Origin: Dudresnaya verticillata
Lineage: Eukaryota
Direction of reading: 5' to 3'
NCBI GenBank assembly: GCA_977862235.1
Contig: OZ374565.1
Coordinates: forward strand, 1,860,001 to 1,924,000
DNA: 64,000 nt
A program made the position numbers and the translations under genes. Under the pieces are notes generated by a model. That model was not told the origin of the DNA. It made no database searches and worked only from the letters and a program-made list of their open reading frames with translations. How positions within the stretch are numbered: the stretch's first letter is position 1; each line of letters starts with the position of its first letter. Shown one piece after another: positions 9,256 to 55,246 of this stretch.

Positions 9256-11613
9256 ATGCCGACGTTCAATGGTGTGCAGGTCGCGGCGCCCTCGGCCGCG
9301 CCGGTATACTTATCTCCATACGACTTCGTCGGTAAGAACCCGCAAGATCACGGGGACATCTTCGCGCAGTCCCCCTGGTTTGACCAGGAGGCCTTGCGTA
9401 ATGAGGAGCTCATTGCTCATTACGCTACCAGCGGATTTTTGCCTGGGGGACTCCCCCTTGCCGTCGTCTGGACGATGGATTGGAAGTTGGGCTGCGCGGT
9501 GCCGCCCGAGTGGCTGTGGGTTCGCGCAGGGCAATCGCGTGCGCGCGTGCATGCCAGGTTCGTCGCAGACGTGTATCGCCGCTCCACGCGTTATCTGTGC
9601 TCGGCGTTAACGCCGGCTATCTTCGAGTTTGATGCCGGTCAATACCGGACCAATGGCGAGATTGAGTATGGGAATCGTCTAGGGACGTTATCGCTCAAAC
9701 ATCTGAGCGTGCCGACAGAGCCGCGTATCAGGCAGGAGGCGTACCTCCTGGGAGTATGCTTGAAAGCGGATTTTCGTTACCAACACCGAACGGGGACGTT
9801 CTTTTGGGAACGATGCATACGTTGGGAATGTGAAACGCGTCGCCGAAAGGGCGTCTTTGTGGCCTACCAGGATATTCAGGTCGATCATATCGAACGCAGT
9901 AAGTTACCTCACTGCTTCGTGAAGGTACCGCCCGTTTGGCGAGAGTTCGAAATTTGCGAAGGTTTCGATACCGAACTTCCTTCGTGTCTCACGTATATCG
10001 GGTCGGAGTTAATGACGGACCCGTACTCCAAATGGTGGGTCATGTTCTACACCGAATGGGTGGCAAACGTAGCGTACGCATGGATTTGGGAGGTGTATGA
10101 CACCTTCCGCATGTATTGGTTGCCACCTCGCATAGTTGCGTCTCTTGGTGGCCTGGACCTAGCCGAGATACTCGGCGGGTCGAGGAACAGCCAGGAGTTC
10201 TGGGATTTGCGCTCAGTAGCGGATGAAATTAACTGGAACGACCCGGCGATGGTGCCGTTAGGGAACAACCGTCGTAAGACGAACCGCCCGCGATTCGCGA
10301 TGAGTCGTAATCACTCCGCCTGTGGCGATTGGATCCATTATAATCCATGGACAAAGCGTCGTACGATGAAGAACGTTGCGGAGCGCCATCGCAAAACGGA
10401 TCGCTTCACCCCGGGTAACCACCCGCGTGGTTTGCGTAAGAGCTGCGACTCTGTCGGTGATTTTCCTCCGCACTTGAGTGCCTTGATGGCCGAGGAAGAT
10501 GCTTTTAACGCCGATGACGAACCGGATAACCCGTCTGGGACGGCTGTTGCTACGCCTATGGCGGTTGAGTCATCTGCCGAGGCTGCGGTTCCACCATCAG
10601 CTTTACCAAAAGGGTCTGCCGGTGGTGTTGGGGTGTCGGCTGGCTTGCCAGTTGTGGCACCTTTGGACCTCGCGGCTCCCGTCTCGGACGTTGATGGCGA
10701 TGCCGTTATGGCGACGCCAATAGTCGAGTCGGCTCCGCCGGCCGTAACGCCTCAGGGCGTAGTATCAAACGTCGTAGACGGGTTTGTGAAGGCGCCCTCG
10801 GCGCCGTTCTGGACCGAGGAACAGCGCTGCACCGTGCTCGCCTTATTGCGTGCAGCTGGAGTCGCTACTAGCGGTTTGAGTGGCTCGCCCACTGAGTGGG
10901 TGAGCCAGTCTCTGGCGGCTGCGTCGCGTCCCCAGAGTGCGTCGGTGCCGGTGCCGATGGTTGGCGTAGGTTCTGCGTCGAAAGACGGTGCAGACGGAAA
11001 GTCGTCATCGCCTAAGGCGACTGGTTCAGCGTCCCAAAACGTAATTGCTACTGTACCGCCAGCGGCGAGCGAGGCAAATGTCGCTACAACGTCTCCGACG
11101 GTTGAGGAGGGCCCAGTGGCTCCTGCGTTGATGACGGACGTTGAATCAGTGACGCCAAAGGCGCGTGAGGGGTCTACGTCGGTTCAGACGGTTCCGGTAG
11201 TTGCGCCGAAGGCGGTTGTTTCTGTTGAGACGCCGAAGGCGAGTGGTGAGTTAGATTCTACGCCCAAGGCGGTTGTGGTTGCTTCGTCGTCCAAGGGTAC
11301 AGTCCCTGCAACTACGCCGAAGGCGGGTGTTATCGTGGCAGCGCCGGAGACGAATGAACGACTTGGTTCTGCGCCATCGGCGGTTGGCAAAACCAAAGAG
11401 GCTTCGCCGCCCAAGGCGGGTGGTGAGTCGAACTCTTCGCCAGCGGCGCGTATTGCTCCTTCAGCTGTGGCGGTGGCGGTGCCTTTGCGGTCCGTCCCTG
11501 TTGCTGCTGTGGGCGTGCCGTCAGTGACGGAAGACGACCTCTATAAAGAGGCGTTGAGGGAGTCCGCCGAGGGCAGTGGTACGGCGGACTCGGCCAAACC
11601 GTCTGCGACGTGA
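9256..11613 (+). CDS. Antisense additional ORF (aORF) of element B, unknown function; aromatic-rich N-terminal domain plus Ala/Pro/Ser/Val-rich tail
   Basis: Uninterrupted ORF (track 9205..11613; first ATG at 9256, about 785 aa) between pol and the 3' LTR, antisense to gag-pol; homologous to the aORFs of C and D. Confidence 0.85.
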   Translation: MPTFNGVQVAAPSAAPVYLSPYDFVGKNPQDHGDIFAQSPWFDQEALRNEELIAHYATSGFLPGGLPLAVVWTMDWKLGCAVPPEWLWVRAGQSRARVHARFVADVYRRSTRYLCSALTPAIFEFDAGQYRTNGEIEYGNRLGTLSLKHLSVPTEPRIRQEAYLLGVCLKADFRYQHRTGTFFWERCIRWECETRRRKGVFVAYQDIQVDHIERSKLPHCFVKVPPVWREFEICEGFDTELPSCLTYIGSELMTDPYSKWWVMFYTEWVANVAYAWIWEVYDTFRMYWLPPRIVASLGGLDLAEILGGSRNSQEFWDLRSVADEINWNDPAMVPLGNNRRKTNRPRFAMSRNHSACGDWIHYNPWTKRRTMKNVAERHRKTDRFTPGNHPRGLRKSCDSVGDFPPHLSALMAEEDAFNADDEPDNPSGTAVATPMAVESSAEAAVPPSALPKGSAGGVGVSAGLPVVAPLDLAAPVSDVDGDAVMATPIVESAPPAVTPQGVVSNVVDGFVKAPSAPFWTEEQRCTVLALLRAAGVATSGLSGSPTEWVSQSLAAASRPQSASVPVPMVGVGSASKDGADGKSSSPKATGSASQNVIATVPPAASEANVATTSPTVEEGPVAPALMTDVESVTPKAREGSTSVQTVPVVAPKAVVSVETPKASGELDSTPKAVVVASSSKGTVPATTPKAGVIVAAPETNERLGSAPSAVGKTKEASPPKAGGESNSSPAARIAPSAVAVAVPLRSVPVAAVGVPSVTEDDLYKEALRESAEGSGTADSAKPSAT

Positions 11614-13036: not shown

Positions 13037-16000
13037 TTATCCGCGCTGGGCGTCGTCAATATTTGGAGGCAGACGCGTGTGCTTCCGGCGGTGGTACCGC
13101 ACGGCGTGTGATCGCGGCAAACTGGATACGGGCTCCCAGGTGTTCGCTGAAGCGGGTTATCCAAACCACTTGACGCGGTAGAGGATCTCACCATCATCCG
13201 CGTAGGCGTGCGACTCGATGCGTTCGATAACGTATTCTTTCCCGCTCACAGCGTTCGGCTTGGACCTGTGTCCTTCCAGCGCCTTTGGCGGTTCGTCTTT
13301 TAGCGTTATGGGCGTCTGTTCCGGTTCGGCGAAGCGTACTCGACGAGTTGATCGCCGAAGGCGTTGGCCTTGGGCCTCGGACGCTCGATCAGCGGTCGGC
13401 GGGTTGTTGCGTCTTGAGACGACTTCATCGCTTGCAGCGTTTGGATTCGTACTTGCACGGTTAACGTCCTCGTTATCGGACGCGCTTTCAGCGGATTCAT
13501 TGTTCTCATTCGGCGGTGCTGTAGCGACTTGCTCCAAACGGGTGCGAACCCCTGGGGTATTGTCGTCGCTGGAGACGGATTGCGAAGCGCGGTCGTCGGG
13601 ATCGGCAGCGAAGGGCGAAAGCTCTGCCAACCCACGGCTGCGTGACGCTGTGATCGTACGCTCTTGCGGATCTCTCGCAGTATGCGAATTCTCTGCGTCC
13701 CCCTCCGGGTCCGCTGGTGTGCTTGGGGTAGTCGTCCCTTCGTCTTGTGACGTGGGGCGACTGCGTCCTGCTCCTCAGGCGGACCTGGTGGTACGACGAT
13801 TGGAGGGGCCGCCTGACCCGGTGGGGTCGGTGCCCAGACCACGCGGTCTCGGGACAAACGTTCCCGCTCGTCTCGTCCCTTGTTGACGGTTACTGTCTCG
13901 TTATCAACATGAGTTACCCGGTATGGTCCGTCCGCCACTGGCGCCAGATTGTGCTTACGCTCTGCGCGATCCGTGCTGCCGCCGCGGGCGAAGTATTCCT
14001 TACGTACGAATACGAAGTCGCCTATGGCGATTGATTCCTTCGATTTCCTTAATCGGGTATCGAAGTTTCGTTTGTAACGTGCTTGAGTTTTCGCTAACGA
14101 CGCTTTAGCGGTTCCCATCAGTGCGGCCAACCAGGTTCGCCACTTGGTGTAGTATTGCCCCGCGGTGGGTACGCTTTCGAGCGACGGTTCCGCTTCGAGC
14201 GAAAGTGGGCGTGGTGGCTTAGACAGCACCAATTCAAACGGAGCGAGATGCGTAGACGAATGCAACTGTGTGTTGTATGCGAACGTCAAGGCATCCGTGA
14301 ACAGGTCCCAGTCTCTCGGATGATCCGCAACGTAGTGACGCAGCGAGGCCAGGATAGTTCGATTGAATCGTTCTACCTGGCCATTGCATTGCGGATGGTA
14401 CGTCGTGGTGAAGAGGTTCTCCACTCCCAAAAGACGGCAGATATCCTGAAACAGCTTAGCCACAAACTGTGGTCCGTTGTCGGACAACAGTTTCTTGGGA
14501 GGGCCGTACACGAAGACCCAATGTCGTACGAACGCCTTAGCGATTTCCAATGCCGTAATACTACGCAGTGGGACCGTCCGGACCAGCTTCGAGAAGCGGT
14601 CCACAATGACGAGTAGGAACTTGTTTCCTCGCTTAGTGCGTATGAGTTCGCCCAGGATGTCGATCGATACGAATTGGAGAGGCTCGGTTGCCGGGAATAA
14701 CTTCAATTGCTTGGTATTCTTTCGCAGCAATACGCGATTCTTAGCGCAAGTTACGCAGTTGCGGACAGTCGCGTAGCAATCCACTGGCATCCATGGCCAA
14801 TAGTATTCGCGTCGAAGCGTATGATACAACTTACGTCCCCCTGGGTGCCCTGCCAACTTGGCGTGGTGCCGGAGGTGGGGTAAGCGAGCGCATAACGCGG
14901 AAGGTACGACCACTTGCGGACGGACTTCCACTGTTCGGACCAACAGGCCCTGTTCATCCGTTGCGAACGGTAAGGTGATCCCGTCATCAAGACGTTTCCT
15001 GACATCGTTACAGTAATTGTCATCGCCTTGGGCGTGTACCAACTCTTGATACGTCACTTGACGAAGGAGTACCTCATCCGCCGGTGGCGTGTTGTTGATC
15101 AACACTTGGTCGAACTCTTCGAACTCTCGTTCGGCGAAGTCGACCTCGCCTTCGGCGTCTGACAGATCGTCTTGTGACGTTTGATGGCCGTCTTCGACGT
15201 AGCTTCCGTGATAGCACGGTATATCATCGTCAATTGGCTCGACGGTTTCTCCCTTCGTCTGTAGACGCGAAAGGGCATCTGCCTGAGTATTCAGGTACCC
15301 CTTTTTGTACTTCACGACAAAGTCGAACTCGGAAAGGCGAAAGCGCCATCGCATTAACCGTCCAGAGGGGTCGCTGATTTCCATCAGCCACCTCAATGAC
15401 GAATGGTCCGTATGGACTGTGAACGACTCCATCTGGAGGTAAGGCCCCAGCGTCATGACGGACCATACTATTGCGAGGCACTCCTTTTCGGAGACCGAGT
15501 AGTTACGCTCTGGAGCGGTGAGCGAGCGGGACCAGAAGCCGAGTGGCTTACGCTCCCCGTCGGGCTGCGTTTGAAAGAGAGCGCAGCCGACCTGATACTT
15601 GCTTGCGTCACAATCGACGGAATAGGGGAGACCCTGCTGTGGTAGCGCCAGTATGGGCGGATGAGTCACGGCCTCGACGAGCGTACTGAACGCTTTGGCT
15701 TGTGTCTCATCAAACGGTTGTAATCGGAAGTCCTGTTCCTTCCTCAGAAACTTGTTGAGGGGGGCAGCGACATGCGCGTATCGCGAGACGAACCGTCTGT
15801 AGACGTTACAAAGACCGAGGAAACTCCGTAGCTCCTTCTGATCCCGTGGGTGCTTGGCTTCGCGTAGCGCGGCAGTGACAGTTCGGTCAACTTCTAACCG
15901 TCCTGGATGTATGACGTGTCCTAAGTAGTTGACGGTCGGGGTGAAGAAGTCACACTTGGTCAACTTCAGAGTCACCCCGGCGCGGTGCAATGTCGAAAGG

Positions 16001-17760
16001 ATCTCTTCGACATGACGGAAGTGACTGTCGATGTCGCTGGAGAAGATTATTACGTCATTGAGGTAGACGAGGCACGAACGCCACTTGTAGCCAGCGAGCA
16101 GTATGTCCAACGTTCGTTGAAACGTAGCGGGCGCGTTCGTGAGACCGAATGGCATGCGCTTATAGCGGAACAGTCCGGCGTGGCACGTGAATGCAGTCTT
16201 ATCGCGGTCTCGCGGATTGAATGGCACCTTCCAGTACCCACTGTTACAGTCTAGGGTAGTGAAGACGTTTGCTTCCCCTAGACTGTCAATGCATTCGTCG
16301 ATACGCGGCAGCGGGTACGTGTCCCGTATGGTTACTGCGTTTAAACGACGGTAGTCTACGCAAAAGCGGAGGGTCCCGTCCTTCTTGGGGGCGAAGACCA
16401 CTGGTGACGCCCACGGCGATTGTGCGGGTTCGATAACCCCTTGACGCAGCATGCGGTCCACTTCCGCTTGAGCGAGTTGTCTTTGCTTCGGCCCCGCTCG
16501 GTAGGGCGGGGACGATATCGGTCTAGAGCCGGGGAGCAAGTCGATGTAGTGCTCCGTGGTTGAGATTTCTCCCAACGAACCGTTCCACATAGACGAATAC
16601 TTGCGCAACATCTCCTTAAGCCGGCCTTGATGCTCGGCGGGGAGATGTCCCAAGTCCAAATCGTCTACTGACGGAGGTTTGGCGGTGGTTGCCTCGATAG
16701 ACTTCGTGAAAGTATCCGGCTGTGCCGCGGTGTTATCGTTCGTTTGAAAACGGAAATCTTGGTTCCCCTCCTCTTCCTCGGCCTGTTTCTCTGTGAGGCC
16801 CAAAACATCGGCTAGACTTACGTGACTGGGGAACACTGCTGTCGGATGTGGTAGCGCCGTCGCGACGACTTGACCCTTGGCCAGCGCCTGCGGGCGGGGA
16901 GAGAAGTTGGCAACCAGAATACGAAACGCTTTTAGCGGTTCCACTTGAGCAATCCCTTTTGTAACGGCCAACCCTTGTTTGTCGTACAGCGTTCCGAACG
17001 GTTGAATTGTGATGATGCCGGCGCGCTCGGTGGTAACCGATACCCATTGCTGCGCCTTAGGCGGGATGATCGCGCGCTCGGCGACTCGGATCTTGGGCGA
17101 CGTCCTCCCTTCGGCCTTGCCGTATTCCCGTTCCGTTGGTAACGGAGGATACGACGGGGGTCGGCGCAGCGGGCGGCGCGTTATAGGGACACGAGTCCCG
17201 TCATCCAATTCAAACTCGCGACTTCGCGGATATATTGCTTCGACGAAGCGGTCGCAAAAGTCGCAGCCGAGTATAACCGGCGCAGCGAGTCGTTCGCAAA
17301 CGATCAGTTCCAACTTGACGACCCTCCGTCCTAGACGACCGACCAAGTCGATGGTGCCTCTTGTCTGGATCGCCTTATTGTTGGCGTCGGCTATGACGGG
17401 GAGGCTCTTTGCCACGATGCGCGGTCGCGCTTCCAGCGGAATGTCGTCAATGCGAATGAAATTAGGACCAGCCCCCGTGTCGAGGACAGTGAGTTTACGT
17501 GCCAAGGTACTAACGGTTGCGCCCAAATCGGCGTACACCTTATAGTTCCTTTTGGTCATTACGAACAACTGCCCTCGCGCCTGAGGGGGCTGGTACCTTC
17601 GCCATAGGCGTTTTAATGACGTCTGTGACGACTCTATCCGCCCGTTGGCGTCATCAGTAACTAACTTCGGGCCCTCCTTCCGTGTCAGCACCCGAGGCCT
17701 AGGCCTCTCTTCGCGGTGCGACACCCCAGTGTCAGGGTTTGGTGCCCGAGTTAGTTTTTC
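13037..17760 (-). pseudogene. pol of element B (PR, RT, RNase H, IN, chromodomain)
   Basis: LDTGA, FCVDYRRLN, RT YLND (catalytic D to N), DCDAS, SDNGPQF, NGQVERFN, ADGPY; frameshift near 13.7 kb; chromodomain EYVIERI...YRVKWFG*PASANTWEP with an internal stop. Confidence 0.95.
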
Positions 17761-20315
17761 GCCTGCGGCGGTGGTTGTGGCGCTACATAGCGGTTGATCA
17801 TCGTCGGATGACGTTCTGCCGCGTGCGGCATGGGTCCGCCTCGTGGCGATTATTGTCGTGCAGTACGGCGAGCAGCGTCGCGGGTCGCGCGTTCCTGGCA
17901 ACGTACATACGCATCAGCGGGGACACCAGCCTTCTCGGCCTCGATTAGTCCTTCATATTTGGTAATAACCTTCATGAAGTCGCTCATGCGGAGGAAGCAG
18001 TCCGGCGCGATGTGTCCGCGGGCGTAGCATTGGTGGCAAACCAGCTGCCGACGCGCGTCTTGACGGGGCGGGCCTCTGTCCTGCCATCCGGGCCTGGATC
18101 GGTGTACGTGGGGAGCATACTCGGAATAGGGGACGCGTGGAGCGGGTACGACCGAGCGCCCAAAGGCGAGAGCAGGGTCCATATCCCTTTCGTCCTCGTC
18201 ATCGACGTAGCTGTCCGTCGGTAGAGCCGAGGTTGGCACCGACGCTTGCTCGTCTGCCAAGTACAAATCGCCTTCGGAGTGTGTTTCCATGTCGTCGACA
18301 GGACGACTATCGTCTCGGAATTCGACGGAGGACTCCGCTATCATAGTGCGCGCTCCAGGCTTGGCGCCTCTCGTCTGTGGACGCAGTACCCCTCGGGTAT
18401 CGCCGGTGGCGGATCGCGGTGTGCGTACGGCTTGAGCCGGTGTCAGTAGGTCACGTCTTGCTGACGCAGAGCCGGCTCTGCCGTGTCGTGCGCGGTTGGT
18501 ATCCCCTTCGTCCTGTGCGAAGTGGACCCGCCGCTCAAATGACAACTCCGCCCTTGGCGTTTCTTCTCGGAAGCGAGCGACCAGGGACCTGATCAACGGG
18601 TCTAATCCGTCGATGTACAGCGTCATCTTTTCCCAATCTGGATATACGTTACCGCAACCAATACACGCACCGGCTAGCCGCATCCCATAGGTCGTCTCGT
18701 ACTCGCCTTGCTTTTGGGCCGTCGACCGTAGGGCGAGGACAGCGTCCCTGATCGCCGCTGGCGTAGCATACGTACGGAGGAGGTACTGTACCGCCTCTGG
18801 ATACGAAGACACCCCGCCGCGATGGCGAGAAGACGTCGAATTGACGGAGCGGAATTGCGTGGCTGCCGTACCTCGCAAGAAGTACGGCAGTGCGATAAAC
18901 GCTTGGGCTTCGCTCATCTCCAGCGTATCGGCCTCATCCGCGTAACGCGTCAGGAACTCGAGGACCATGACGGGGTCGCTGCCGTTGAAGGCAGCGTCCT
19001 TCATGGTCAGCTCCAGTCGCTTAATGTGGTCCTTGACCTTGCCCGTATCGCGCCCTGAGCGTTTTTGCCCTACGTCTCTAAGACGGTAAGTCCTGTACGA
19101 TAACAACTGATCGAAAAGGGGTTGGAGGGGCATAGCTCCTTCAGCCCCTTGAACTGCTTTCCGCGAGGTCTTGCGGCACTGCCGAGAGCTGGGAAGTCGT
19201 CTTCTTCAGACGAAGAGTCTGACGACTCCCCGTCACTTGACGAATCCGAAGAGGAAGAGGATGAGTCCCCACGTCGATGACGGTTCTTCTTCCGTCTCTG
19301 ACGCAGCTTGCGTCGGCGTTTCTTCCGGTCATTACGTCTGTGACGATCTTCGCATGAGCTCTCGTCGCCCGACGGTGGACCATTGCGCCACTTGGCGTTT
19401 TCGAGTCGCTCTAAGCGGGTCGCAAGTCGCTGAAAGCGTTCGCGTGAGCTAAGCTCAGAATGAGAATGAACCGTTACTGCTGGCGGTGGTTGTGTACCCT
19501 CGCTTTGGGCGTTTTGATTCCTCAGTAGACGGTCGAGGTCGGATCGAAGTCCTTGTAGGGCGCCGTTCCGATCCTCTTCCAACGTCTGTAGACGACTCGC
19601 GATTCCTCCGACACTGTCGTCCAGCAACCCGGCGAACCGAGCGAGCATCGCATCGTACTCTAAGACGCACACCTCTCGGATCCGTTCGCGTGGTATCGTT
19701 ACGTTACTCACGCGGACAACCGAGGGTGACGCCGTTGGCGGTTGGCTTTCGCGGTTTGACCGGTCGGGCGTCCCTTGCGCCCTTTTGACTTGGCGAATTT
19801 GGCTTAGCCGGCGAACAACCGGCACTGCCGTGGGGAGTGGGGCAGCAAGCCCCGTGTGTCAATGGTTCGTCAACGACGTTGCGCTCCGCGGAGTGCGCTT
19901 GGCCGTCGTTGACGGGAATGGTTGGTTGATCCCGAAGTTCCGGTTGTCCCTCGACGATGTCAGCTTGTGTTCCGTCTACGACGTCCTGTTGCTCGGCTTG
20001 TACTGTATCAGCCGAGTCAACGTAGGAGCGGTAGGTGCGGAGGGCCGATCCCTCGGGGACTGAGGTGCGGACGACGACGGGGTTGTGGCGCGTCGGCGGG
20101 GGAGGTAACTTTCCTCCGTTGAGCGACGCGTGGGAGCCTGCGTGGCCGTGGTCCGGGGGTAGCGTCGGGAACGCCGACGCGATCTCGGGGCTCACGAGGC
20201 GCCCAGACCTCGTTGTCATCCGCTGTAGCGACCGTTCAGACGCGGGTACACTCCCAGGCGTCGAAGACGGTCTTCTTGAACTTGGGCCTCGCGACGGCGG
20301 CGGTCGTGAGGCCAT
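17751..20315 (-). pseudogene. gag of element B
   Basis: Three overlapping ORFs (19704, 19070, 17850); YRTYRL and FNGSDP core shared with the C gag; zinc knuckle CHQCYARGHIAPDC; premature stop at 17850, after which the same frame continues to QAKN* at 17751. Confidence 0.9.
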
Positions 20316-20422
20316 GATACAATCGTAGAGTTGCTTGAACGTCGTGGACGATTAGCGACAAACATCTGAAGACGGATAGTTGGACGTCGCGCGACGGAGA
20401 AACGCGTTGAAACGTAGCACTG

Positions 20423-20443: not shown

Positions 20444-21261
20444 TGTGGTGCAAAGCATCTGTAGACGATGGACCGCCGAGCAGTTTGGGGCTCTGTGGGT
20501 AGCTGCGCCCTTGGCGAGGGGTGGTCCCGCCGTGGGCGACTTGGTGGTAGAGCAAAGGAACACGCCTTGGGCGGACTGTAGACGCCCGAGGCGGAAGGTG
20601 TGAAGGAAAGGGAAAGGAAACAGAAAGGAACAAAAGGAAAGCACGTCAAGGACGGGTAGAGACGTGGAAGCACGGGAGGTAGACTCTTAGCCGTAGGCAG
20701 CGGTAGGATACGCGCGAGCGGAACGGGAAAGTCTGGACCAAGGCCGGCTTGTCCGGGGTTTACTCAGCGTCGCAGACGGATTACCTAATATACTACGTGA
20801 GCGACGGCGGTAGGCGCGGTGCGCGGGAACTCAGGACGCTTGTCGCGTCGTCGAGTGTCTGACACGTCGTCGTCGCCATGCAGCCGCGCGCGCGGGAGCT
20901 CAGGAGTAGCTTACAGGCGCGTGCGTGTAGCGTTGCAGGTGATCCGGATTCGGATCCGGATCCCGGCCAGCATTGCTGGCGCGCGGCCCTTACAGGCGCG
21001 CTCCTTACATCACTGTGGATCCGGATGCCGGACCAAGCTTACAGGCGGGCGCCTTGCGCCCGGCTGATCGGGATCCTGCATCCGGATCTGGCCGTACAGT
21101 GGGCGCGTGCGCCGCGCCGCGCGGGGTAACGGCGGCCGGATGCCCGTGGGCCAATCGTCGATGACGTGTTCGCGCGCCAACGGCGGTGGACGTGCCGTCG
21201 GTAGACGTTGATATATAATACGCTCAGAGCGAAAAAGGCGCAGCCCTCCCCTTGCACCACA
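20444..21261 (-). repeat. 5' LTR of element B
   Basis: tgtggtgcaa...ttgcaccaca perfect 10-bp terminal IR. Confidence 0.96.
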
Positions 21262-42463: not shown

Positions 42464-43154
42464 TGTGGTGTAGTACGTGGACCCACCGTAAAGGACAGCT
42501 GGCCAAGCTATTCCAAAACGGAGTACCAAATACCGAACCGGGGTGGTAGAGCTTAGTTCGTAGACCGCGGGGAGTACAGCGCGCGGCAACACCAAAAAGG
42601 AATAAAGGGAAGCAACAAGAAAAGGTGCGGTACAGTGCCGGGGCAGCTTCACCGAGACGGATATGGAGGTTAACCGTGTACGGGGCTGGCGCGGGGAAAC
42701 CGAAAAGGTAAACTAGGGTAACAGCTAGGGTAAAGCAGTTGTCCCAGGGTTGCTTTCCCTTTAATTCAGGAGCCACTGCGAGTCGCACTGATATAGAGTC
42801 AGGCGACCCTCAGCGGTCCGGTCCGAGTGATCCAGCCCGGAGAGGGGCAGGTCCACCAGGTGGGTCCGGCCCTACTGGTCCCGGTCACCGTGCCGGACAT
42901 GCGCGGCATTCTCATTGGCCGGCGCCATACTACGTACTGTACAGCATCATTACATCTACTAAATTAAAATTAAAACAATTACTTGGCTCCGATTGGTGGT
43001 TTCCATAGACTCCAGCAAGGTCTACAGTGCGGGCGTACAGGCGGAACGGCGCGGCGTGTTTTGGCGCGCAGCTGCGCTCACACGCGCCACCTTTGCGGAT
43101 TGTCCGTTTCCGTTTTGACCGACGTCGGCTTGCCGCCTTGTCCACTTCACCACA
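42464..43154 (-). repeat. 3' LTR of element C
   Basis: tgtggtgtag...cttcaccaca; direct repeat of 53067-53757. Confidence 0.97.
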
Positions 43155-45976: not shown

Positions 45977-46068
45977 TTAGCCAGCGCCTTAGTTACACCA
46001 TTAAGGTCTTGTTGATGCACTATTAAAGAGGATTGCTTCCCTTTAACCACTTGCGATAGCCCGTCTCC

Positions 46069-49000
46069 TTAGGTGCGAGTAGGTCGACGGCTCCGTCTCG
46101 GTACTGTAGCAGCAGCACGTTTGCGATTCCAATAACGGAGTATAAAGTTCTGCGGCAATTCCTCTGCGGGTTCGTACGTGTCCTGGTCTGGCGGATAGCC
46201 ATACCAGCGCACCTTGTAGGTCATGCCTGTAGGCTCCTCACGGTGTCCTACAATCTTTTCAACGACATACTCCGTATCGGTATCAACTGGCTCTGTGGAG
46301 TCTGGAGCTCCTCCGTCTCGGTCAGTCGGGGCTGTCGGCTCCCCGGCTGGTGTAGCCGTGACGGGGGGAGGCGCGACTGCCGCTGGTTGCACTGCAACTC
46401 CGATAGGGACTTTGGTGATCCGGTCGATGCTGATCGGAATCAGCACCCCATCCTTTTTGATGGTCACGACCGTCTCCGTTGCGGTTGCCACCTCATAGGG
46501 TCCTGTAGAGTGGGGTAGCAGCTTCTTCATCTGCTCCGCGAAATCACCAGCGAGGTCAGGGCCTTGTCCCAATCGGTCTCGCTCTCTCCGTTCGGTGGGT
46601 CGCAGATTCCGTGGCGGTCGATCGACGTAGACTTGATCCCCGCTGTGGATTTCGGGTCTAAAGCGCACCCTACGGTCGAACAACTCCTTCGCCTTCAGTT
46701 GGGCTGCGGTCTGCTTTGTCTGCGCCTTCTGTAGAGCATAGCGCAGACGCCGCATGGTTCCCCGTTTTTGGATTACGGGCGTCACGCGCCCCTCCGTTAA
46801 GGTTTCTTCCAACTCCACTGGGGTGCCTCGGACAATTATGTCCGATGGGTGTCGAGTCAACACCAAATCGAAAGGGGTTGTATCTGTCATCCGGTGAACC
46901 TGCGTATTATATGCGTAGGTTAGCGGTTGTAAGTAAAGATCCCAATCGGTGTGGTGGTCCTCTACATAGTGGCGGAGACGCTGGGCAATAGTGCGATTAA
47001 ACCGTTCGGCTTGCCCATTTGTTTGCGGGTGGTAGGCTGCAGTGAGCAAATGCCTTACACCGAGAAGGGCACACACCGCGTCGAAGAACTTAGCAGTGAA
47101 CTGCCTTCCGTTATCGGTGAGCACAAATTTGGGGGCGCCATAGGCGTAGACCCAATTGTCCAGAAACGCATTTGCGACCACGACGGCTGTAATCGTCCGT
47201 AACGGAATGCACCGTGTCAGTTTTGAGAACCGATCGGTGATCACCAATACGAAAACATAACCCCGTTTGGTTTTTGGCAGTGGTCCAAGGATGTCGATCG
47301 CTATGAACTCCAGGGGGCCGCTGGCGGGGAAGAGTTTCATAAACTTCTGATGCCGAAAGCGGGTTCCCTTGGGCTTCACACAAGAGCGACAACTCCGTAC
47401 GGTTTCGAATACATCATTAGCCATGTGGGGCCAATAGTATTCTCTCCGTAAGGTGTAATACATTTTGATACCGCCAGGGTGGCCTGATACCAATGTATAA
47501 TGGGCCAGGTACAGTACTCTGCCTCGAAGCCTTTGCGGTACCACCTTTTGGAGTGCACCGTCTAGGGTTGATTTGCGAACCAGAAATCCGTGGTGGTCAT
47601 ACTCAAACTGGGAACCAGGGGAACCCACCGTGTCGGCTTTGAGTTGACAGAACTTATCTTCCGCTTGGGCAGCTATGAACTCCTCAAGGGTGATGGTTTC
47701 GTTCTGCATGTCCTCCAATCGGATTACTGTTTCCCTTAAAGGAGTAGAGTCGTCAGTGTTCGTTTGCGTCCCATCCGTTTCGGTGTCTTCTGTTTCGATT
47801 CCTAAGACGGATAATTCGTCCTCATCGGATTCCAGGATCCATTCCCAATCGGCGAGGCACATGCCATGCTCGATCATACCTTCAGGTGTAGACTCCACTA
47901 CGAAACAGGGAACCTCTTCGTCCAGGTCATTTTCGTCAGCTCCATCCGTACGGAGTCGGGACATGCCGTCAGCCAATTGATGCTTCACTCCGGGTCGGTA
48001 TTGCACTTCGAACTCCGAAAGGCGTAGGCGCCATCGTGCTAATCGACCCGAGGCGTCCGCAAGGTTGAGGATCCAACTCAAAGCGTCGTGATCCGTTCGG
48101 AGTGTGAATAGCTCACCGTAAAGGTAGGGGCGTAGCGTCAGCATGCTCCAAACGACTGCAAGGCACTCCTTTTCGGTGGTTGTGTAATTCTTTTCCGCAT
48201 CGGTGAGACTTCGGCTCCAATAGCCTACCGGCAGGTGGTCACCGTTAGGTTGCTCCTGTAGGAGAACACACCCGACTTGGTAGTCACACGCATCGGTGTC
48301 CAGCGTGTATCGAAAACCGTGACGGGGTAGAGCCAGTATAGGAGGAGAGATCAGATGTCTCTTTAACTCCTCAAAGGCATTAAACTCCGCATCGGTGAGG
48401 GTTTCGAACTCGAAAGTCTGTCCCTTACCGGTCTTCTTATTAAGCGGGGCCGATATCCTTGCGAAATTGGGAACGAAGCGGCGGTAGACGTTACACATTC
48501 CTAAAAAGGAGCGTAGTTCCGTTTGGTTTGTGGGCGGTTTCGCCTCCTTAACGGCTTGGATATTCTTGTTGTGCACTTCCAATTGACCGGGACGGATGAT
48601 ATGGCCCAGGTACTGTACGGAGGTGTCAAAGAAGGCACACTTTGACAGTTTAAGGGTGACCCCTGCTGCTTGAAGCAACGTGAGGACCTCCTTTAGGTGA
48701 TGAAAATGTTCCGTAACGGATTTAGAATAGATTATCACGTCGTCTAGGTAGACCAAGGCGAATTGCCACTTCACCGTCGATAGGATTATGTCAACAGCTC
48801 GCTGGAAGGTGGCCGGGGCATTCTTGAGCCCGAAAGGCATTCTCCGAAAGCGGAATAAACCGTAATGGCTAGTGAACGTAGTTTTGTCACGCTCCTCTTC
48901 GGGTATTTCCACTTGCCAGTAACCACTGTTACAGTCCAGCGTGGTGAATACAGTAGCCTCTCCCAGAGAGTCTATGCACTCATCCATACGGGGTAGGGGG

Positions 49001-50328
49001 TATGAATCCCGCACTGTAACAGCGTTAAGGCGTCGATAATCCACGCAAAACCGCATGGAGCCGTCCTTTTTGGGTACAAAGACCACAGGGCTGGCCCACT
49101 CCGATGCGGCGGGTTCGATCACCTTAGCGGATAACATGCGATCGATTTCCGTTTTCTCTATTTCGCGTTGCTTATGACCTGCCCGATACGGTGCTTGATA
49201 AACCGGCTTAGCTCCGGGAGTCAATTCGATACGGTGTTTGGCGGCTGTGATGTTGCCAAGCTCACCGTTCCACATGGTGCTAAACTCCTCAAGGAGTGTT
49301 AAAACCTTTGAACGGAGTGTGTCATCTTCGGCATCGATCTGGACACTGTCTTTCCAGTCGGTGGTTGTTGATTCCGGTACGGTGTTTTCTGGGTTGTCGG
49401 GGCTGGGCTGTGCTGTGCTGCTTCCGTTAGGAGGAGGCGATGTGGTAGAATTATTAATTCCTCCCCCCTCCTTAGATGGAGGCACACCGTCGACGGTAAA
49501 TATGGCAGAGGGAGCAGCAGAAGCCAAGCCCACCACTGTAGACTTAGATAACCGTACCGGCTTATTAGAGAAATTGGACAGCCATGCCTTGAAGGGTTTG
49601 TTAGGGACCACATCCATAATTCCATTTGCCATTAAGGTCAGGTGTTTAAGGATGGGTTTCGGGTGACACTGTAGATAACATAACCCACCGGTTGGAGTAA
49701 CGACTGTCGCAATCGTTTGCGTCATAGGGGGGATGATGAGGGATCGGGCGAGACGAATCTTCTGCGAAACCGTAGCGGTGGAAACCTGAGGACTCTTAAG
49801 AGTTGCTGCTGCAACCGTTTTGGAGCCTGCTTGTCCCAGTAAAGACACAGGAGGGTAGTGGTGAAAGACCACTTTCCGTACCGGTAGGAGGATCGCCTTA
49901 ACATGGCGATCAATAAAACTCGTGCCCAGGATGCATGCGGCTGCCAGATTGGCGACAACCAAAAAGTGGACACGAGCGCGTAATTCTCCGACACGGACGA
50001 AAAGTTGAATCTCACCGAGAGGGCGGATTGACCGAATGGATGCATCCCGTAAAGGTGGACTGGCGACTGGGCGTAACGATGACAGCCATTGGTGCGGAAG
50101 GCGTCGAGCATTAATGAGATTTGGCCCAGCGCCTGAGTCCAAAACGGTGGTGAGAGGCAACATGAGGTCATTACTCCGTCCGACGGTAATCTGAATCTTA
50201 TAATTTTGCCGCTGTAATACGCAGATAGAATCACCGGGTGGAGGTAACTCAAGGGGGATTTCCGGAACTAATTCAAGGGGGGATTCCGTAACGGTGGCGG
50301 ATTGGGAGGCGGAACGATCAACGGGCAT
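46069..50328 (-). CDS. pol of element C (PR, RT, RNase H, IN, chromodomain), uninterrupted
   Basis: 1419 aa; LDSGA, YLDD, DTDAC, HHCC, TDNGRQF, NGQAERFN, TGPY and chromodomain EYVVEKIVGH...YKVRWYGY...TYEP. Confidence 0.97.
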   Translation of the reverse strand: MPVDRSASQSATVTESPLELVPEIPLELPPPGDSICVLQRQNYKIQITVGRSNDLMLPLTTVLDSGAGPNLINARRLPHQWLSSLRPVASPPLRDASIRSIRPLGEIQLFVRVGELRARVHFLVVANLAAACILGTSFIDRHVKAILLPVRKVVFHHYPPVSLLGQAGSKTVAAATLKSPQVSTATVSQKIRLARSLIIPPMTQTIATVVTPTGGLCYLQCHPKPILKHLTLMANGIMDVVPNKPFKAWLSNFSNKPVRLSKSTVVGLASAAPSAIFTVDGVPPSKEGGGINNSTTSPPPNGSSTAQPSPDNPENTVPESTTTDWKDSVQIDAEDDTLRSKVLTLLEEFSTMWNGELGNITAAKHRIELTPGAKPVYQAPYRAGHKQREIEKTEIDRMLSAKVIEPAASEWASPVVFVPKKDGSMRFCVDYRRLNAVTVRDSYPLPRMDECIDSLGEATVFTTLDCNSGYWQVEIPEEERDKTTFTSHYGLFRFRRMPFGLKNAPATFQRAVDIILSTVKWQFALVYLDDVIIYSKSVTEHFHHLKEVLTLLQAAGVTLKLSKCAFFDTSVQYLGHIIRPGQLEVHNKNIQAVKEAKPPTNQTELRSFLGMCNVYRRFVPNFARISAPLNKKTGKGQTFEFETLTDAEFNAFEELKRHLISPPILALPRHGFRYTLDTDACDYQVGCVLLQEQPNGDHLPVGYWSRSLTDAEKNYTTTEKECLAVVWSMLTLRPYLYGELFTLRTDHDALSWILNLADASGRLARWRLRLSEFEVQYRPGVKHQLADGMSRLRTDGADENDLDEEVPCFVVESTPEGMIEHGMCLADWEWILESDEDELSVLGIETEDTETDGTQTNTDDSTPLRETVIRLEDMQNETITLEEFIAAQAEDKFCQLKADTVGSPGSQFEYDHHGFLVRKSTLDGALQKVVPQRLRGRVLYLAHYTLVSGHPGGIKMYYTLRREYYWPHMANDVFETVRSCRSCVKPKGTRFRHQKFMKLFPASGPLEFIAIDILGPLPKTKRGYVFVLVITDRFSKLTRCIPLRTITAVVVANAFLDNWVYAYGAPKFVLTDNGRQFTAKFFDAVCALLGVRHLLTAAYHPQTNGQAERFNRTIAQRLRHYVEDHHTDWDLYLQPLTYAYNTQVHRMTDTTPFDLVLTRHPSDIIVRGTPVELEETLTEGRVTPVIQKRGTMRRLRYALQKAQTKQTAAQLKAKELFDRRVRFRPEIHSGDQVYVDRPPRNLRPTERRERDRLGQGPDLAGDFAEQMKKLLPHSTGPYEVATATETVVTIKKDGVLIPISIDRITKVPIGVAVQPAAVAPPPVTATPAGEPTAPTDRDGGAPDSTEPVDTDTEYVVEKIVGHREEPTGMTYKVRWYGYPPDQDTYEPAEELPQNFILRYWNRKRAAATVPRRSRRPTRT

Positions 50329-50378
50329 GGCCCGTGTTGGGGGGCGTTGAACGCCGTGAGTCGGAGACGGCGGCGCCC

Positions 50379-52988
50379 TTACGTGTCTCCGTGGGCGTTT
50401 TCCGACTCGGTTTGCTCCCGCGACGGTTCCACGAACTCCTCCATGGGCTGACCGTCTTCTGCGACATCCTCCACCATCATAACCCGAAACGGACGTTGCT
50501 GTGGCCCCCCACGGGGTCGGGCTCCCGGTACGGACTGTCCGGCTGCTTGACGCCGTTGAAGGAGAGCCTGATAATTGCGCTCGCGCTCTTCCATCAGGCG
50601 GCTCCTTTCGGTGTCACCCAAGTAGGGACAGATCACGTGGTCGGGTGATAAGCAGAGACGACAGTATCCGCTACCGTAAAGGCGTCGAGTATCCGAAACG
50701 GGGTTGGCAGCAGTGCCATCAGCAGGGGCTTGCTGTACGTTACGGAAGTCGGCCTTAACAGGGTTAACGCCCCCGTTGCCGTTATGGAGTGCGGCTTGCC
50801 CGGGCTGCTGCTCGGCTTGTCCGTAACGGAGTTGACGAGGCGGCGGCATGCGGGGTGCCGGCGGCCTATGAATTGGTGTCCGAGGCGGAGTAGGGTAGAT
50901 GCTCGAGGGAGGGGACGAGTAGGCGGTTGTGAAGGTCACGCCCGATGAGGTGCCCGTCCCTCGGGCTGAACCTGCTTCCATGGCGAAGACATGTTCGTCC
51001 GATTCCCCAGGGATCTCCGAATAGGTGTAGTCCGATGCGGAGTCGACGGCCAAGACACCGGCACGACGCGTTGTCTTCGGTTTGCCATCGAAGACATGCA
51101 CCGGTGAGGTTTGGCGTCGCCCAGCCCTGTGGGATTCTCCAAGCCCCTTTGCGTAGCGCGTGATGGCCTGGTAATCCAATACGGGGTGAGTAGCTAAGTA
51201 GTTCCGCATCTGCTGACATGTACCCGGTAGGAGTCCCTCCACGAACAGCGACTTGAGCGTCCTGTCCGAAAACACAGTACCGCAACGGAGAGCTTTTGAC
51301 CAGAGCTGGTTAGAGAACTGCTCCTCCGTCATGGCCGATGTTTGACGGAAAGAGATCACGTCCGAGTGAGCCTCGGCGATCACCTCATCGGTTGCATAGG
51401 TCCGTAAAAGGAAATTCACCACTTCGGAGTAGGTGCGTATCATTTCTGCTTGCTCCTCGTCGACCGCCATGGTGCCCCCGGCGAGACGGGCTTGAAGCAG
51501 AGCTTCTGTCTGTCCGCTGAGGAAGAATTGGAAACACCATACGGCTGTTCCCTCCGAAACGGCGTTGATATTACACGAGTCCTTGAACTTCGCCAGGAAG
51601 CCAAGCACCGTGATGGGGTCTGTACCGTTAAAGGAGTGGGACTTCATCTGCACTTCCAGCTTCTTCCTTATACGGTTCATGTTCTGGGAGAGGAGGGAGC
51701 TGTAAGATGAACTCCTTTTATCCAAACGGTAGGTACGGTAATCCAGCGCCTTTACGAACTTATCGTTCAGGGGCCGGATTACCTTCGGTCGCGACTGGTC
51801 TCGGTCCTTAGGTTTGGCGTCGCGTTTGCTGGCCCGACGCCGCTCGTCCCTATCCGTATCGGAGGAGCTCGAATCCGAGCTCGATGACGAAGATGGGGAG
51901 GAGTCATGCCCGTTTTCGCGTTTGCGCCGCGATTTGCGCTTATTCTTCTTCTTCCGTGATCGGTGTTGGCTATCATCTGACGATTCCGTACCGGAGTATT
52001 CTTCGTGTCGTCGCGAAGCGCGCTTGCTTCTGTGCGATCCTTCACGGTTTTTATCGGTGCGGGAGCCCCGGGCTTTTCTGTCACCACGGTCTCGACCGCT
52101 CCGAACGGGGGGTTTCTCGGAGTCACCGCTTGAGTGCTCGCTGCCTCCACGGGATGCCACCGGCAGGGTTATACGCTCCTTCGTGGGCATGTCCACGAGT
52201 CCAGGGGCGCTATTCCGTGTCGGTTTGAGTTTTACCTGATCCGTAGCGGGGTATTGACTTTGAATTGGGTCAGGAGCCATGACCGCCCGCCTCGGGTCGG
52301 CTTGATACTCCTGAGAGGTAACTTCTGGCGTAAACTTCGTTTCTCCCTTGACCGGGAAGTCACTCCTTAATGGTGTCGGTACAGTAAAAGGCTGCTCAGT
52401 GGGGCGGATTAACTCCAGCTCCATAGCCTGACGCTCCTGACGGATGAGCGCCTGTACTAACTCCGGAAGGTGTCGCTCCAGGTAGGTGTTAACCATAACC
52501 GGAACGGTGTCGGCAAGAGCCGCTTCCACCTCCTTGACCATACCGGGTTGCACCACCGTACGGAGATGCTCCAGGACTCTGGGTATGACCTCGGCGAGTA
52601 TCCAGTGTGTCCGGTGGGAGTCACCTGGCTTGGGTACACCTTTGCGGGAAGTATCCGAGCCGGGGCGAGACCTAGAGGGCCTACTGGCTGCACCTTTAAG
52701 GAGTTCTTCGGGGTTCTCCATACCGGGTTGCAGGTCGGCGTCGTCGCCACGGCGTGTTCTCGTGGCGGCGGCTGCCTCCGAAACGGTGGGTTCACTGCGG
52801 CGTGTTCTCGCAGTGTCAGCCACCTCCGGGACGGTGTTATCGTCGCTGCGGCGTGATCTCGCAGACGACGGCACGTCACCTGGTTCCGAAACGGAAGGGT
52901 CCATGTTTTCTTCTGTGTGTAGGATTCCAAAACGGTTCAGACGGGTGTTTGACCTTGTCTTTCCAGAATTCCTAAACGGTGTTGTCAC
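50379..52988 (-). CDS. gag of element C
   Basis: 869-aa ORF after the PBS; YRTYRL and FNGTDP core; CRLCLSPDHVIC knuckle-like motif. Confidence 0.92.
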   Translation of the reverse strand: MTTPFRNSGKTRSNTRLNRFGILHTEENMDPSVSEPGDVPSSARSRRSDDNTVPEVADTARTRRSEPTVSEAAAATRTRRGDDADLQPGMENPEELLKGAASRPSRSRPGSDTSRKGVPKPGDSHRTHWILAEVIPRVLEHLRTVVQPGMVKEVEAALADTVPVMVNTYLERHLPELVQALIRQERQAMELELIRPTEQPFTVPTPLRSDFPVKGETKFTPEVTSQEYQADPRRAVMAPDPIQSQYPATDQVKLKPTRNSAPGLVDMPTKERITLPVASRGGSEHSSGDSEKPPVRSGRDRGDRKARGSRTDKNREGSHRSKRASRRHEEYSGTESSDDSQHRSRKKKNKRKSRRKRENGHDSSPSSSSSSDSSSSDTDRDERRRASKRDAKPKDRDQSRPKVIRPLNDKFVKALDYRTYRLDKRSSSYSSLLSQNMNRIRKKLEVQMKSHSFNGTDPITVLGFLAKFKDSCNINAVSEGTAVWCFQFFLSGQTEALLQARLAGGTMAVDEEQAEMIRTYSEVVNFLLRTYATDEVIAEAHSDVISFRQTSAMTEEQFSNQLWSKALRCGTVFSDRTLKSLFVEGLLPGTCQQMRNYLATHPVLDYQAITRYAKGLGESHRAGRRQTSPVHVFDGKPKTTRRAGVLAVDSASDYTYSEIPGESDEHVFAMEAGSARGTGTSSGVTFTTAYSSPPSSIYPTPPRTPIHRPPAPRMPPPRQLRYGQAEQQPGQAALHNGNGGVNPVKADFRNVQQAPADGTAANPVSDTRRLYGSGYCRLCLSPDHVICPYLGDTERSRLMEERERNYQALLQRRQAAGQSVPGARPRGGPQQRPFRVMMVEDVAEDGQPMEEFVEPSREQTESENAHGDT

Positions 52989-53042
52989 AAGTTAAGCTCC
53001 TACCGAGGCGGAGTTTAACGGCTGTTCTGCTACCTTCACGGT

Positions 53043-53061
53043 CTTCTAGGTCGGGAGACCA
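53043..53061 (-). promoter_or_regulatory. Primer binding site of C
   Basis: TGGTCTCCCGACCTAGAAG, 5 nt from the 5' LTR; identical to the B PBS. Confidence 0.85.
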
Positions 53062-53066
53062 AAAGA

Positions 53067-53757
53067 TGTGGTGTAGTACGTGGACCCACGGTAAAGGAAA
53101 GCTGGCCAAGCTATTCCAAAACGGAGTACCAAATACCGAACCGGGATGGTAGAGCTTAGTTCGTAGACCGCGGGGAGTACAGCGCGCGGCAACACCAAAA
53201 AGGAATAAAGGGAAGCAACAAGAAAAGGTGCGGTACAGTGCCGGGGCAGCTTCACCGAGACGGATATGGAGGTTAACCGTGTACGGGGCTGGCGCGGGGA
53301 AACCGAAAAGGTAAACTAGGGTAACAGCTAGGGTAAAGCAGTTGTCCCAGGGTTGCTTTCCCTTTAATTCAGGAGCTACTGCGAGTCGCACTGATATAGA
53401 GTCAGGCGACCCTCAGCGGTCCGGTCCGAGTGGTCCAGCCCGGAGAGGGGCAGGTCCACCAGGTGGGTCCGGCCCTACTGGTCCCGGTCACCGTGCCGGA
53501 CATGCGCGGCATTCTCATTGGCCGGCGCCATACTACGTACTGTACAGCATCACTACATCTACTAAATTAAAATTAAAACAATTACTTGGCTCCGATTGGT
53601 GGTTTCCATAGACTCCAGCAAGGTCTACAGTGCGGGCGTACAGGCGGAACGGCGCGGCGTGTTTTGGCGCGCAGCTGCGCTCACACGCGCCACCTTTGCG
53701 GATTGTCCGTTTCGGTTTTGACCGACGTCGGCTTGCCGCCTTGTCCACTTCACCACA
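53067..53757 (-). repeat. 5' LTR of element C
   Basis: Direct repeat of 42464-43154. Confidence 0.97.
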
Positions 53758-53762
53758 CCTAT

Positions 53763-55246
53763 TATGGATCGCGGGCGAAGTTCGAGACCGAAGCTTGGTT
53801 TGCGGTTGTCTGGTCGATGGCGAAGACCGAGCAGGCACTCAATGTAGCTGTGGCCTTCCTCCAGGCGGCCTACAACGGGATGTGGAACACCACCGTGACT
53901 CCTTCGGGTGAGTCGAACTTCCTCTACCGAGATACCCTTCCAGTTGGTCGACTTTTTCGGCTTTCAGCTTCCCTCATTGAGCAGATCCGCCACCTTGGGG
54001 TCGACCTCATCTGCGAGGGCAGCACCTATGCGGGCCACGACCTCGAGGGTTTGCTGAAGTATGTGGAGCTCCACCACTGGGCACCGACCGTGGAGTGGGA
54101 GGTTTTCGATCCCTCACGCCAAGAAATTGTCGACCGAGAAGGGCGCCTGCAAGTCATTTGCATTCCACAGGGGGTCACGCTCAATCGTTCCCGCAGTCAG
54201 GTGTTTGCTCCGGCTAACGAAGCCGACCTATATCAGCCGCTCCCTCATCCGCCATCTACCTCTTTGGATACGCGACCAGCGGTAACTCCCTTCACCTCTT
54301 CAGCGCCAACGACTGCTAACCCCATGGTAACTATCCCTGCGCCGCCAGCAACTAACCCCAGCGACTTATGGTCCTCCTCGATGGGTCTGACTTCTCCTCC
54401 CGTGTCTGCTGCGTTCCCGTCAAACCAGGTTGGGGCTCCAGTAGGTAATGACTCCGCAGTTGCTACGGCCCTGGCTCGGTTACAGTTAGCCTGCCGAGTG
54501 GCTAAGGTGACGGAGCCGAAGACCTTGGTGGAAGCACTGGAGCAGGCTCGGTTGTGGATAACTTACGAGTCGACTCGGGGTTGGTTCAGGAAGGAGATCA
54601 CCAACATGGCTTCCCATCAGGTCCGTTCACTTCAAGGAGTCACCACAGCGGTTCAGCAGGCTGCCAACGCTAAGTTCGCCTGCAGACGCAGGCAAACTTA
54701 GCGTTGGCAGCCCTTAAGCAAGTAGTGGTGGACTTGACGAGAAGCATTGGGGCCATTGGAGACTCCGAGATGAAACACATTCGGGGCTTGTTAATCCAGA
54801 GTGAGAAGCTACCGACTCCGGAGATACCACCAACGGTTGTGACCTCCTTGGGTGTTCCGGCCGACTACATCCCATCGGGGTATCAACCTTCGGGTCTCAC
54901 CACTGGATGGAGCTCCGTTGTCGGTTCCGCTAACCGCGAGGCTCCCACTGGTGGACCCAGTCCGGTTACGCCTTGTCTGGCGCCGGCTTCTCCCCGTGCC
55001 GCGGTTTCCATGATTGGAGGTGCTAGTCGAGCAATGGAAACTATTACCCCTGGGTTACCACCTTCTTCTTCTGCGTAAGATTCTGGAAGACAAGTCGTTG
55101 CTCCAGGAGTAACTCCATCGAGTCCGAGGCGTGCGTCTACTCCAGCGGCGCAAACGCCCTCACCTTTTCAGCCAACCGGTAGGGTTCCTCGTCGGCGCAG
55201 TCAGCCTGCGGATGACCCGAGTGGCAAACGCGCCCGTTACCAGTAG
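53763..55246 (+). pseudogene. aORF of element D, 3' part
   Basis: KTEQALNVAVAF...GRLFRLSASLIEQIRHLGV core, Pro/Ser/Thr tail, ends GKRARYQ*; internal stops at 54701 and 55078. Confidence 0.8.

Follow-up and report, generated by a model that had tools for sequence, protein, structure and literature searches.

Chromodomain elements and their antisense ORFs

The stretch of Dudresnaya verticillata DNA analysed here (64,000 nt, contig OZ374565.1; in the following called the window) holds three minus-strand Ty3/gypsy elements, B, C and D, each coding for RT, RH, IN and a chromodomain. Their Pol proteins are 40–45% identical, in agreement with the original prediction that they represent distinct families. 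Paired TG...CA LTRs, a 5-bp TSD, PBS, PPT and the RT-RH-IN order of Ty3/gypsy elements were found, with B and C complete; D is truncated at 58236 and its 3' LTR end is a candidate only. The 3' LTR of B (TG...CA, 7970..8787) shows 13 differences to the 5' LTR (20444..21261; TSD GTCGC) in 818 columns and adjoins a polypurine tract at ~8790–8800. Its pol (PR-RT-RH-IN, 13082..17913) ends in a chromodomain which is out of frame, contains a stop and, at 15.7 bits, stays below the Pfam cut-off of 25.1; it is 40% identical to the chromodomain of C. The gag region of B (17850..20351) consists of three overlapping reading-frame pieces, one of which (17850–19205) is ~30% identical to C gag. Element C possesses open gag (50379..52991, 870 aa) and pol (46069..50613, 1514 aa, with a C-terminal chromodomain) genes between a 3' LTR at 42464..43154 and a 5' LTR at 53067..53757 (7 differences in 691; TSD CCTAT). 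It is inserted within the antisense ORF of D, whose pol remnant (RT-RH-IN-chromodomain) lies at 55591..58236. The chromodomains of C and D score 44.4 and 37.5 bits, both above the cut-off. Chromodomain gypsy lineages of brown algae are, in the available part of the source, described as not being chromoviruses (PMC12477816), therefore membership of B, C and D in the chromovirus clade cannot be assumed. The Pol of a further element, A, is 22–27% identical to that of the chromodomain elements, and the gap between its pol and an LTR piece measures only 447 bp.

All three families had been predicted to carry, between pol and the 3' LTR, a long ORF in antisense orientation. Position and orientation hold in three of three chromodomain elements, but the frame is open only in B. 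There it comprises 785 aa (9256..11613, plus strand), with a folded core at about aa 9–395 followed by a Pro/Ala/Ser-rich tail. The other five frames across it contain 16–33 stops each, and the longest ORF on the opposite strand has 143 aa. The central core common to B, C and D, which contains all ten shared residues described below, corresponds to aa 118–340 of B (9607..10275, plus strand). In C the antisense ORF (43311..45976, plus strand) is broken; its core frame is open at 43451–44773, with the match to the family profile at ~44096–44512, and the tail has at least one further frame change. The peptides quoted in the original prediction could be located on the plus strand for blocks 1 and 2, for block 3 of B and D and for both helix motifs, but block 3 of C is read from the minus strand, at 44882–44829 within an inverted segment (44650..45108). 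Its borders are formed by two perfect inverted copies of 153 bp (44497–44649 versus 44956–45108). The D gene is split by the C insertion into a left part (41733..42463, plus strand), which has a stop at 42230–42232 and lies downstream of the candidate 3' LTR end and polypurine tract near 41355, and a right part (53763..55246, plus strand), which is open to 54698 and then disrupted in its tail by a frame change and a stop. Thus, two of the three copies in the window are broken, including that of the young element C with its open gag and pol. A search for TATA-like elements gave a single plus-strand TATAA at 8740 in the 3' LTR of B and none in the 3' LTR of C, too little for a promoter claim.

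Homology of the three antisense genes

That the three proteins are homologous had been proposed from alignment by eye. Direct pairwise similarity is weak (best BLASTP E-values of 0.012, 0.016 and 0.30 for the window pieces alone, those of C and D being partial), but a family profile built from 81 relatives of B from outside the window gave scores far above chance. The X-bridged C and D sequences reached 47.7 and 54.5 bits against maxima of 5.5 and 6.4 for shuffled sequences. When 1582 window segments were scanned in six frames, the top five matches after B itself were all pieces of C or D; element A did not match the profile. In C and D the match is confined to ~220 aa in the centre of the profile, and neither its N-terminal ~110 aa nor its C-terminal end was detected in either of them. 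Ten residues, mostly acidic, basic or aromatic, are common to the whole family: D126, R131, E135, Y138, E191, R195, W228, E232, P242 and Y247. The family residue is kept by C at 7/12 highly conserved versus 7/68 variable columns, and by D at 9/14 versus 15/82. The B, C and D cores are 15–24% identical, compared to 40–45% for Pol. In a tree of the ORFs, C and D group together with a support of 0.98 on long branches, and Pol identity likewise pairs them, as co-inheritance predicts. Judged from these sequence comparisons, the antisense gene is real and its three copies are homologous.

A wide protein family with a predicted helical core

The family of the B ORF comprises 427 representatives, with hundreds of clusters at 22–45% identity to B. 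Only one of 30 clusters checked bears an organism name, Gracilariopsis chorda, so that a red-algal range of the family is putative. Four G. chorda copies fall within one 90% cluster and a separate cluster has 33 members, both of which fit repeat-borne genes. The G. chorda "hypothetical proteins" BWQ96_10156, _00829, _09918 and _02238 can be re-annotated as likely transposon genes. The association with retrotransposons is established only within the 64-kb window; no homolog locus with flanking DNA was confirmed in metagenome contigs, viral contigs or prokaryote genomes. Phage records contained no match, and word-indexed protein searches were insensitive, with 0, 1 and 12 matches.

As originally stated, the ORF has no recognisable domain: no Pfam family reached its cut-off in the B, C and D pieces or in 66 homologs. 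A match of AKNA to the C tail was rejected at 20.6 bits, below the cut-off of 28.1. PHROGs matched none of ten proteins, NCBIfam gave one match among ten, below cut-off, and the ESM Atlas no usable one for the B core or a G. chorda protein. In a sequence search of solved structures B found none, and profiles reached best E-values of 8 and 0.42. The protein family was not found in the literature searched.

Structure models of the core had pLDDT values of 91.4 and 95.7. By prediction, the core of ~380 aa is mainly helical and folds stably, and a tail of low complexity follows it. For a 414-aa model the best Foldseek E-values were 3.2 in the PDB and 4.6 in a viral library, and a VIA-align comparison with 48,161 chains peaked at Z 3.1 (85 residues, rmsd 3.6). 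For the 223-aa shared core, Foldseek gave a best E-value of 7.0 and VIA-align a best Z of 2.7 (rmsd 5.5 over 115 residues), with none at Z≥5. A missing match among solved structures and the viral library is not proof of a new fold. Arg and Trp make up, on average, 10% and 3.6% of the cores, a composition that would be compatible with nucleic-acid contact; their median net charge is 0 and, therefore, the core is no obviously basic DNA binder. Neither His nor Cys forms a conserved column (at most 36% and 43%). By hydropathy alone, the median of the core maxima is 1.26, 12 of 81 exceed 1.6, and the maximum of B (1.71) is located in its Ala/Val tail.

In the tails, a second motif of ~35 aa, which may resemble SAP/LEM/HeH, recurs in 31 of 66 homologs (best E-value in reversed tails 1.7); many homolog tails are predicted to hold a second domain of this size. 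It gave no Pfam match within whole homolog proteins. Within the window it is not significant, as 29/500, 37/500 and 83/500 shuffles scored as high for B, C and D; the best-scoring window in the B tail, a candidate only (29/500), is at 10828..10929 on the plus strand. The second helical motif which C and D were thought to share is present on the plus strand in both, but its similarity is marginal (29/2000 shuffles as high); the C motif (45704..45784, plus strand) is also marginally similar to the second domain of the family. The basic, NLS-like end ascribed to C and D does not characterise the family. Of 47 near-full-length homologs, only 6 have a cluster of basic residues among their last 40 aa, whence a family-wide C-terminal NLS was rejected and the NLS argument for a nuclear role fails to generalise. 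The B translation terminates without such a cluster, and an NLS-like pattern anywhere is found in 18 of the 47.

Comparison with known systems

Antisense extra ORFs of LTR retrotransposons have been described before, their function and origin being called unknown (PMC7264820, PMC11963269). The closest parallel is the aORF-3R of plant Tat/Retand elements, such as maize Grande gene23, rice RIRE2 and Silene Retand ORF4 with TRP28 (PF04195), which likewise lies antisense between pol and the 3' LTR (PMC7264820, PMC11963269). It is similarly conserved across families with unknown function and a proposed regulatory role (PMC7264820; PMC11963269), and for gene23 of Grande an antisense promoter of its own and a product located in the nucleus have been described (PMC7264820). 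The ORFs described here occupy the aORF-3R position in all three elements and are conserved across three families of one genome. However, Retand elements form a flowering-plant lineage outside the chromoviruses, whereas the present elements carry chromodomains and, by sequence, encode a different protein family. TRP28 identity was rejected since no PF04195 match at E≤0.05 was obtained in the B, C and D pieces or 66 homologs.

Among algal LTR elements, REM1 of Chlamydomonas reportedly has its third ORF on the reverse strand. It likewise adds chromatin-related coding, and the available part of the source mentions a PHD finger (PMC6673714); in contrast, our ORF has no PHD finger, chromodomain or conserved Cys/His. 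Boty of Botrytis and Sclerotinia is another non-plant Gypsy element, of fungal hosts, whose antisense ORF occupies the corresponding site (PMC7264820). Red-seaweed transposons also carry accessory genes: according to the accessible part of 10.1101/2025.02.11.637652, red-algal DNA transposons bear some whose domains putatively modify chromatin or DNA, those of Plavaka (PAG1-3) are proposed to counter the silencing of their own element, with mention of VANDAL anti-silencing proteins, and PAG1 has no known domain. The PAG genes reside in DNA transposons, the ORF studied here in gypsy elements, and the comparison to PAG1 is by description only. Finally, the env-like ORFs of Athila and Bagy2 also lie between pol and the 3' LTR, but are sense and often have transmembrane segments, whereas here the ORF is antisense in all three elements with a globular predicted core. 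Its orientation led us to reject env; the original prediction had dismissed it for the lack of a TM segment or signal peptide.

Possible function of the antisense gene

A constant site and strand in three families, ten kept residues, 427 representatives and a globular modelled core support the proposal of an ancient, selected accessory gene distinct from env. By analogy, transcription from the 3' LTR may yield a nuclear factor that counters silencing or acts in regulation. We favour, with somewhat less than even confidence, a homologous antisense accessory gene, probably transcribed from the 3' LTR side, whose product would act in trans, bind nucleic acid or chromatin and serve escape from host silencing or use of element RNA. 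The gene would have been inherited together with a retrotransposon clade in red seaweeds and be expressed from its own antisense promoter rather than from gag-pol RNA. The protein would help the element evade host silencing or promote the use of its RNA, and, if it acted in trans, copies with a broken gene could therefore still be mobile.

An unlikely alternative is that the core is an enzyme, with D126, R131, E135, Y138, E191, R195, E232 and Y247 in an active site whose target, to be modified or cleaved, would be a protein of host defence, a nucleotide or nucleic acid. The ten shared residues are mainly charged or Tyr and the domain size fits, but a conserved His or Cys column is lacking, and R131/E135 and E191/R195 are spaced i,i+4, which is typical of structural salt bridges. 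Retrotransposon capture of an enzyme has, in the portion of the report available, a precedent in the m6A demethylase of orchid Gypsy elements (PMC9289625).

It is rather improbable that the protein assists the particle or the pre-integration complex as a cofactor, in packaging, nuclear import or target-site choice with the chromodomain, and is not a silencing antagonist. Functions of this kind have been suggested for antisense ORFs (PMC7264820) and, within the window, the gene accompanies the chromodomain clade and is absent from element A. However, the ORF diverges much faster than Pol, which would rather be typical of host-conflict proteins.

We give little credence to a mobile accessory gene that moves among unrelated red-algal transposons and is not specific to gypsy, perhaps identical to PAG1, the Plavaka gene without a domain. 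The available part of 10.1101/2025.02.11.637652 recognises no domain in PAG1 and has PAG genes crossing transposon families in Florideophyceae, and the 427 relatives may sit in other genomic contexts. Against this, every match in the window falls within gypsy elements, the region 58500–64000, near a PAG2-like methylase, gave a best profile E-value of only 3.6, and C and D pair in both the ORF tree and Pol identity. That the ORF is not under selection, being a shadow frame, a piece of transduced host sequence or incidental to a regulatory antisense RNA, is very improbable: the C and D copies are broken and direct pairwise similarity is close to noise, but hundreds of clusters are conserved at the protein level, the fold is confidently predicted, and a shadow ORF was rejected because the opposite strand has no long frame.

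Beyond the favoured trans-acting binder, one may speculate, with low expectation, that a protein of new fold, with Asp, Arg, Glu and Tyr conserved in its active site, has been the dedicated counter-silencing enzyme of a red-seaweed retrotransposon clade over hundreds of Myr, akin to the VANDAL anti-silencing proteins. LTR elements are reported to drive most of the growth of red-algal genomes, and transposon silencing is described as unexplored in red macroalgae (both from the accessible part of 10.1101/2025.02.11.637652). The intact 785-aa gene, the deep family, the high-confidence model and ten mutable residues make biochemical tests feasible. A counter-silencing protein, if true, would indicate which host pathway is targeted.

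Nested elements and their antisense genes

The LTR retrotransposons in the window are nested and lie on the minus strand. The chromodomain Ty3/gypsy element B (3' LTR 7970–8787, 5' LTR 20444–21261, minus strand; 13 differences in 818 columns, TSD GTCGC) is inserted within the unrelated or distant gypsy element A, which it splits into 3357–7809 and 21010–23146. Element C (42464–53757, minus; 7 differences in 691 between the LTRs, TSD CCTAT) has its insertion site in the antisense ORF of element D, also on the minus strand, truncated at 58236 and with a candidate 3' LTR end and polypurine tract near 41355. The chromodomains of C and D exceed the Pfam cut-off, that of B is degenerate, and B and C have a primer-binding sequence in common. 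The Pol protein of A is 22–27% identical to those of B, C and D. Within the LTR of A lies a solo-LTR-like piece (~3650–4216), 75% identical to the C LTR and in opposite orientation. Two pieces of ~300 bp (58236–58537 and 23433–23735) are 75% identical, and one of them adjoins the break in the D reverse transcriptase. A near-perfect (98.9%) hairpin of 95 bp (41606–41700) is found between the candidate 3' LTR end of D and its antisense ORF.

The original prediction of a long antisense ORF in B, C and D holds for B, where it is open over 785 aa (9256–11613, plus strand), with 469 bases between its start and the 3' LTR, but in C and D it is broken. The B ORF is not the shadow of a sense gene, since the other five frames contain 16–33 stops each and the longest open stretch on the opposite strand is only 143 aa. 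Block 3 of C, a peptide stretch formerly placed on the plus strand, is absent there and was found at 44882–44829 on the minus strand. It lies inside an inverted segment flanked by a perfect 153-bp inverted duplicate (whole structure 44497–45108). This may reflect a template switch or other recent rearrangement, or else an error in the assembly. The tail of this ORF has an additional frame change. The D ORF is interrupted by a stop (42230–42232), the C insertion and more breaks beyond 54698.

The genes at 29071–30225 (+), 32927–34516 (-) and 37818–38912 (-) probably belong to the host, and all three have a hydrophobic N-terminus. The second is a glycosyltransferase 61 (Pfam); the other two gave no Pfam match, and their short motifs may resemble a sulfotransferase PAPS-binding loop. 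The three may form a cell-wall polysaccharide cluster. Short inverted and direct repeats among them (35408–37527, 40147–40336) are possibly small non-autonomous elements. An ORF at 62272–63672 (-) matches PF01555 (N6/N4 DNA methylase; E 2.8e-9), and no SET domain was seen in it; such a methylase domain is reported in PAG2, an accessory gene of red-algal transposons (10.1101/2025.02.11.637652).

Homology and distribution

Searching 1.84 billion representative proteins with the first 414 aa of B yielded 427 relatives with E<=0.001; 167 of them reached 1e-10 and 47 reached 1e-30. A profile was built from 81 proteins among the best 150 of the 427 matches (match span at least 250 aa), excluding the window proteins. 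Against 1582 six-frame window segments, the top five after B were all pieces of C or D (E 1.9e-10, 1.1e-9, 0.0015, 0.0019, 0.074; next segment 0.13). Read through their breaks with X, C scored 47.7 and D 54.5 bits, against maxima of 5.5 and 6.4 over 1000 shuffles each, the match being confined to the central ~220 aa. Pairwise BLASTP alone is weak (best E 0.012 for B–C, 0.016 for B–D, 0.30 for C–D), but the profile bears out the homology first proposed by eye. B, C and D agree at ten positions where at least 75% of the homologs have the same residue: D126, R131, E135, Y138, E191, R195, W228, E232, P242 and Y247. We are almost certain that the antisense gene exists and that its copies are homologous. 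In the ORF tree C and D pair on long branches (support 0.98), possibly through long-branch attraction.

A red-seaweed host can only be inferred for the family, because an organism was assigned to just one of the 30 clusters looked up: Gracilariopsis chorda, with four hypothetical proteins within one 90% cluster. Several members are present in eight of these clusters and 33 in a further one, although the members of a cluster may be re-assemblies of a single locus.

An antisense extra ORF is an architecture already known in kind; REM1 reportedly carries a reverse ORF. Both the protein family and its occurrence in chromodomain elements, probably those of a red seaweed, seem not to have been described before. 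In the full texts searched, among them few subscription papers and no Repbase Reports (the publication that covers Chondrus elements), neither this family nor an antisense ORF from gypsy elements of red algae turned up. The gene may therefore already have been annotated as a third ORF without a name.

Predicted protein and possible function

AlphaFold2 gave a confident, mostly helical model for B 1–414 (pLDDT 91.4, pTM 0.89) and for the core common to B, C and D (pLDDT 95.7, pTM 0.92). A second motif of ~35 aa, which may resemble SAP/LEM/HeH domains, is present in the tails of 31 of 66 homologs. The best-scoring tail windows of B and C fall on the candidate motif without reaching significance (shuffles as high: 29/500 and 37/500; D, 83/500), and its predicted sharing by C and D is marginal (29/2000). 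The basic, NLS-like end did not hold up as a family feature, a C-terminal basic cluster occurring in 6 of 47 near-full homologs.

No Pfam family reached the cut-off in the B, C and D pieces or in 66 homologs (four had unrelated sub-threshold matches), and the homolog alignment has no conserved His or Cys column. In the cores Arg makes up 10% on average, Lys 2% and Trp 3.6%; the median net charge is 0. Within the window, the one place where the linkage to retrotransposons was seen, all three chromodomain elements have the gene, and element A, whose pol and LTR piece are 447 bp apart, gave no profile match. At highly conserved columns C keeps the family residue in 7 of 12 and D in 9 of 14, at variable columns in 7 of 68 and 15 of 82. 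Among the rival readings, an enzyme seems unlikely and a particle or integration cofactor slightly more so; still more doubtful is a mobile gene common to gypsy elements and DNA transposons, such as PAG1 of Plavaka elements, and an ORF devoid of selected function is scarcely credible.

Our tentative choice is a protein that acts in trans, either as a regulator or against silencing, and that would be expressed from the side of the 3' LTR. The core diverges much faster than Pol (15% against 42% identity for B–C, 18% against 40% for B–D, 24% against 45% for C–D) yet retains fixed positions, a pattern presumably frequent in host-conflict proteins, and this speaks for such a role. So do two precedents: gene23 of the maize element Grande has a promoter of its own and a nuclear product (PMC7264820), and red-algal transposons bear accessory genes with putative modifying domains (10.1101/2025.02.11.637652). 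In the young element C, gag and pol are open across 6.9 kb but the 2.7-kb antisense ORF has at least two lesions, a weak hint of action in trans. The antisense orientation also counts in favour, as it calls for a separate transcript.
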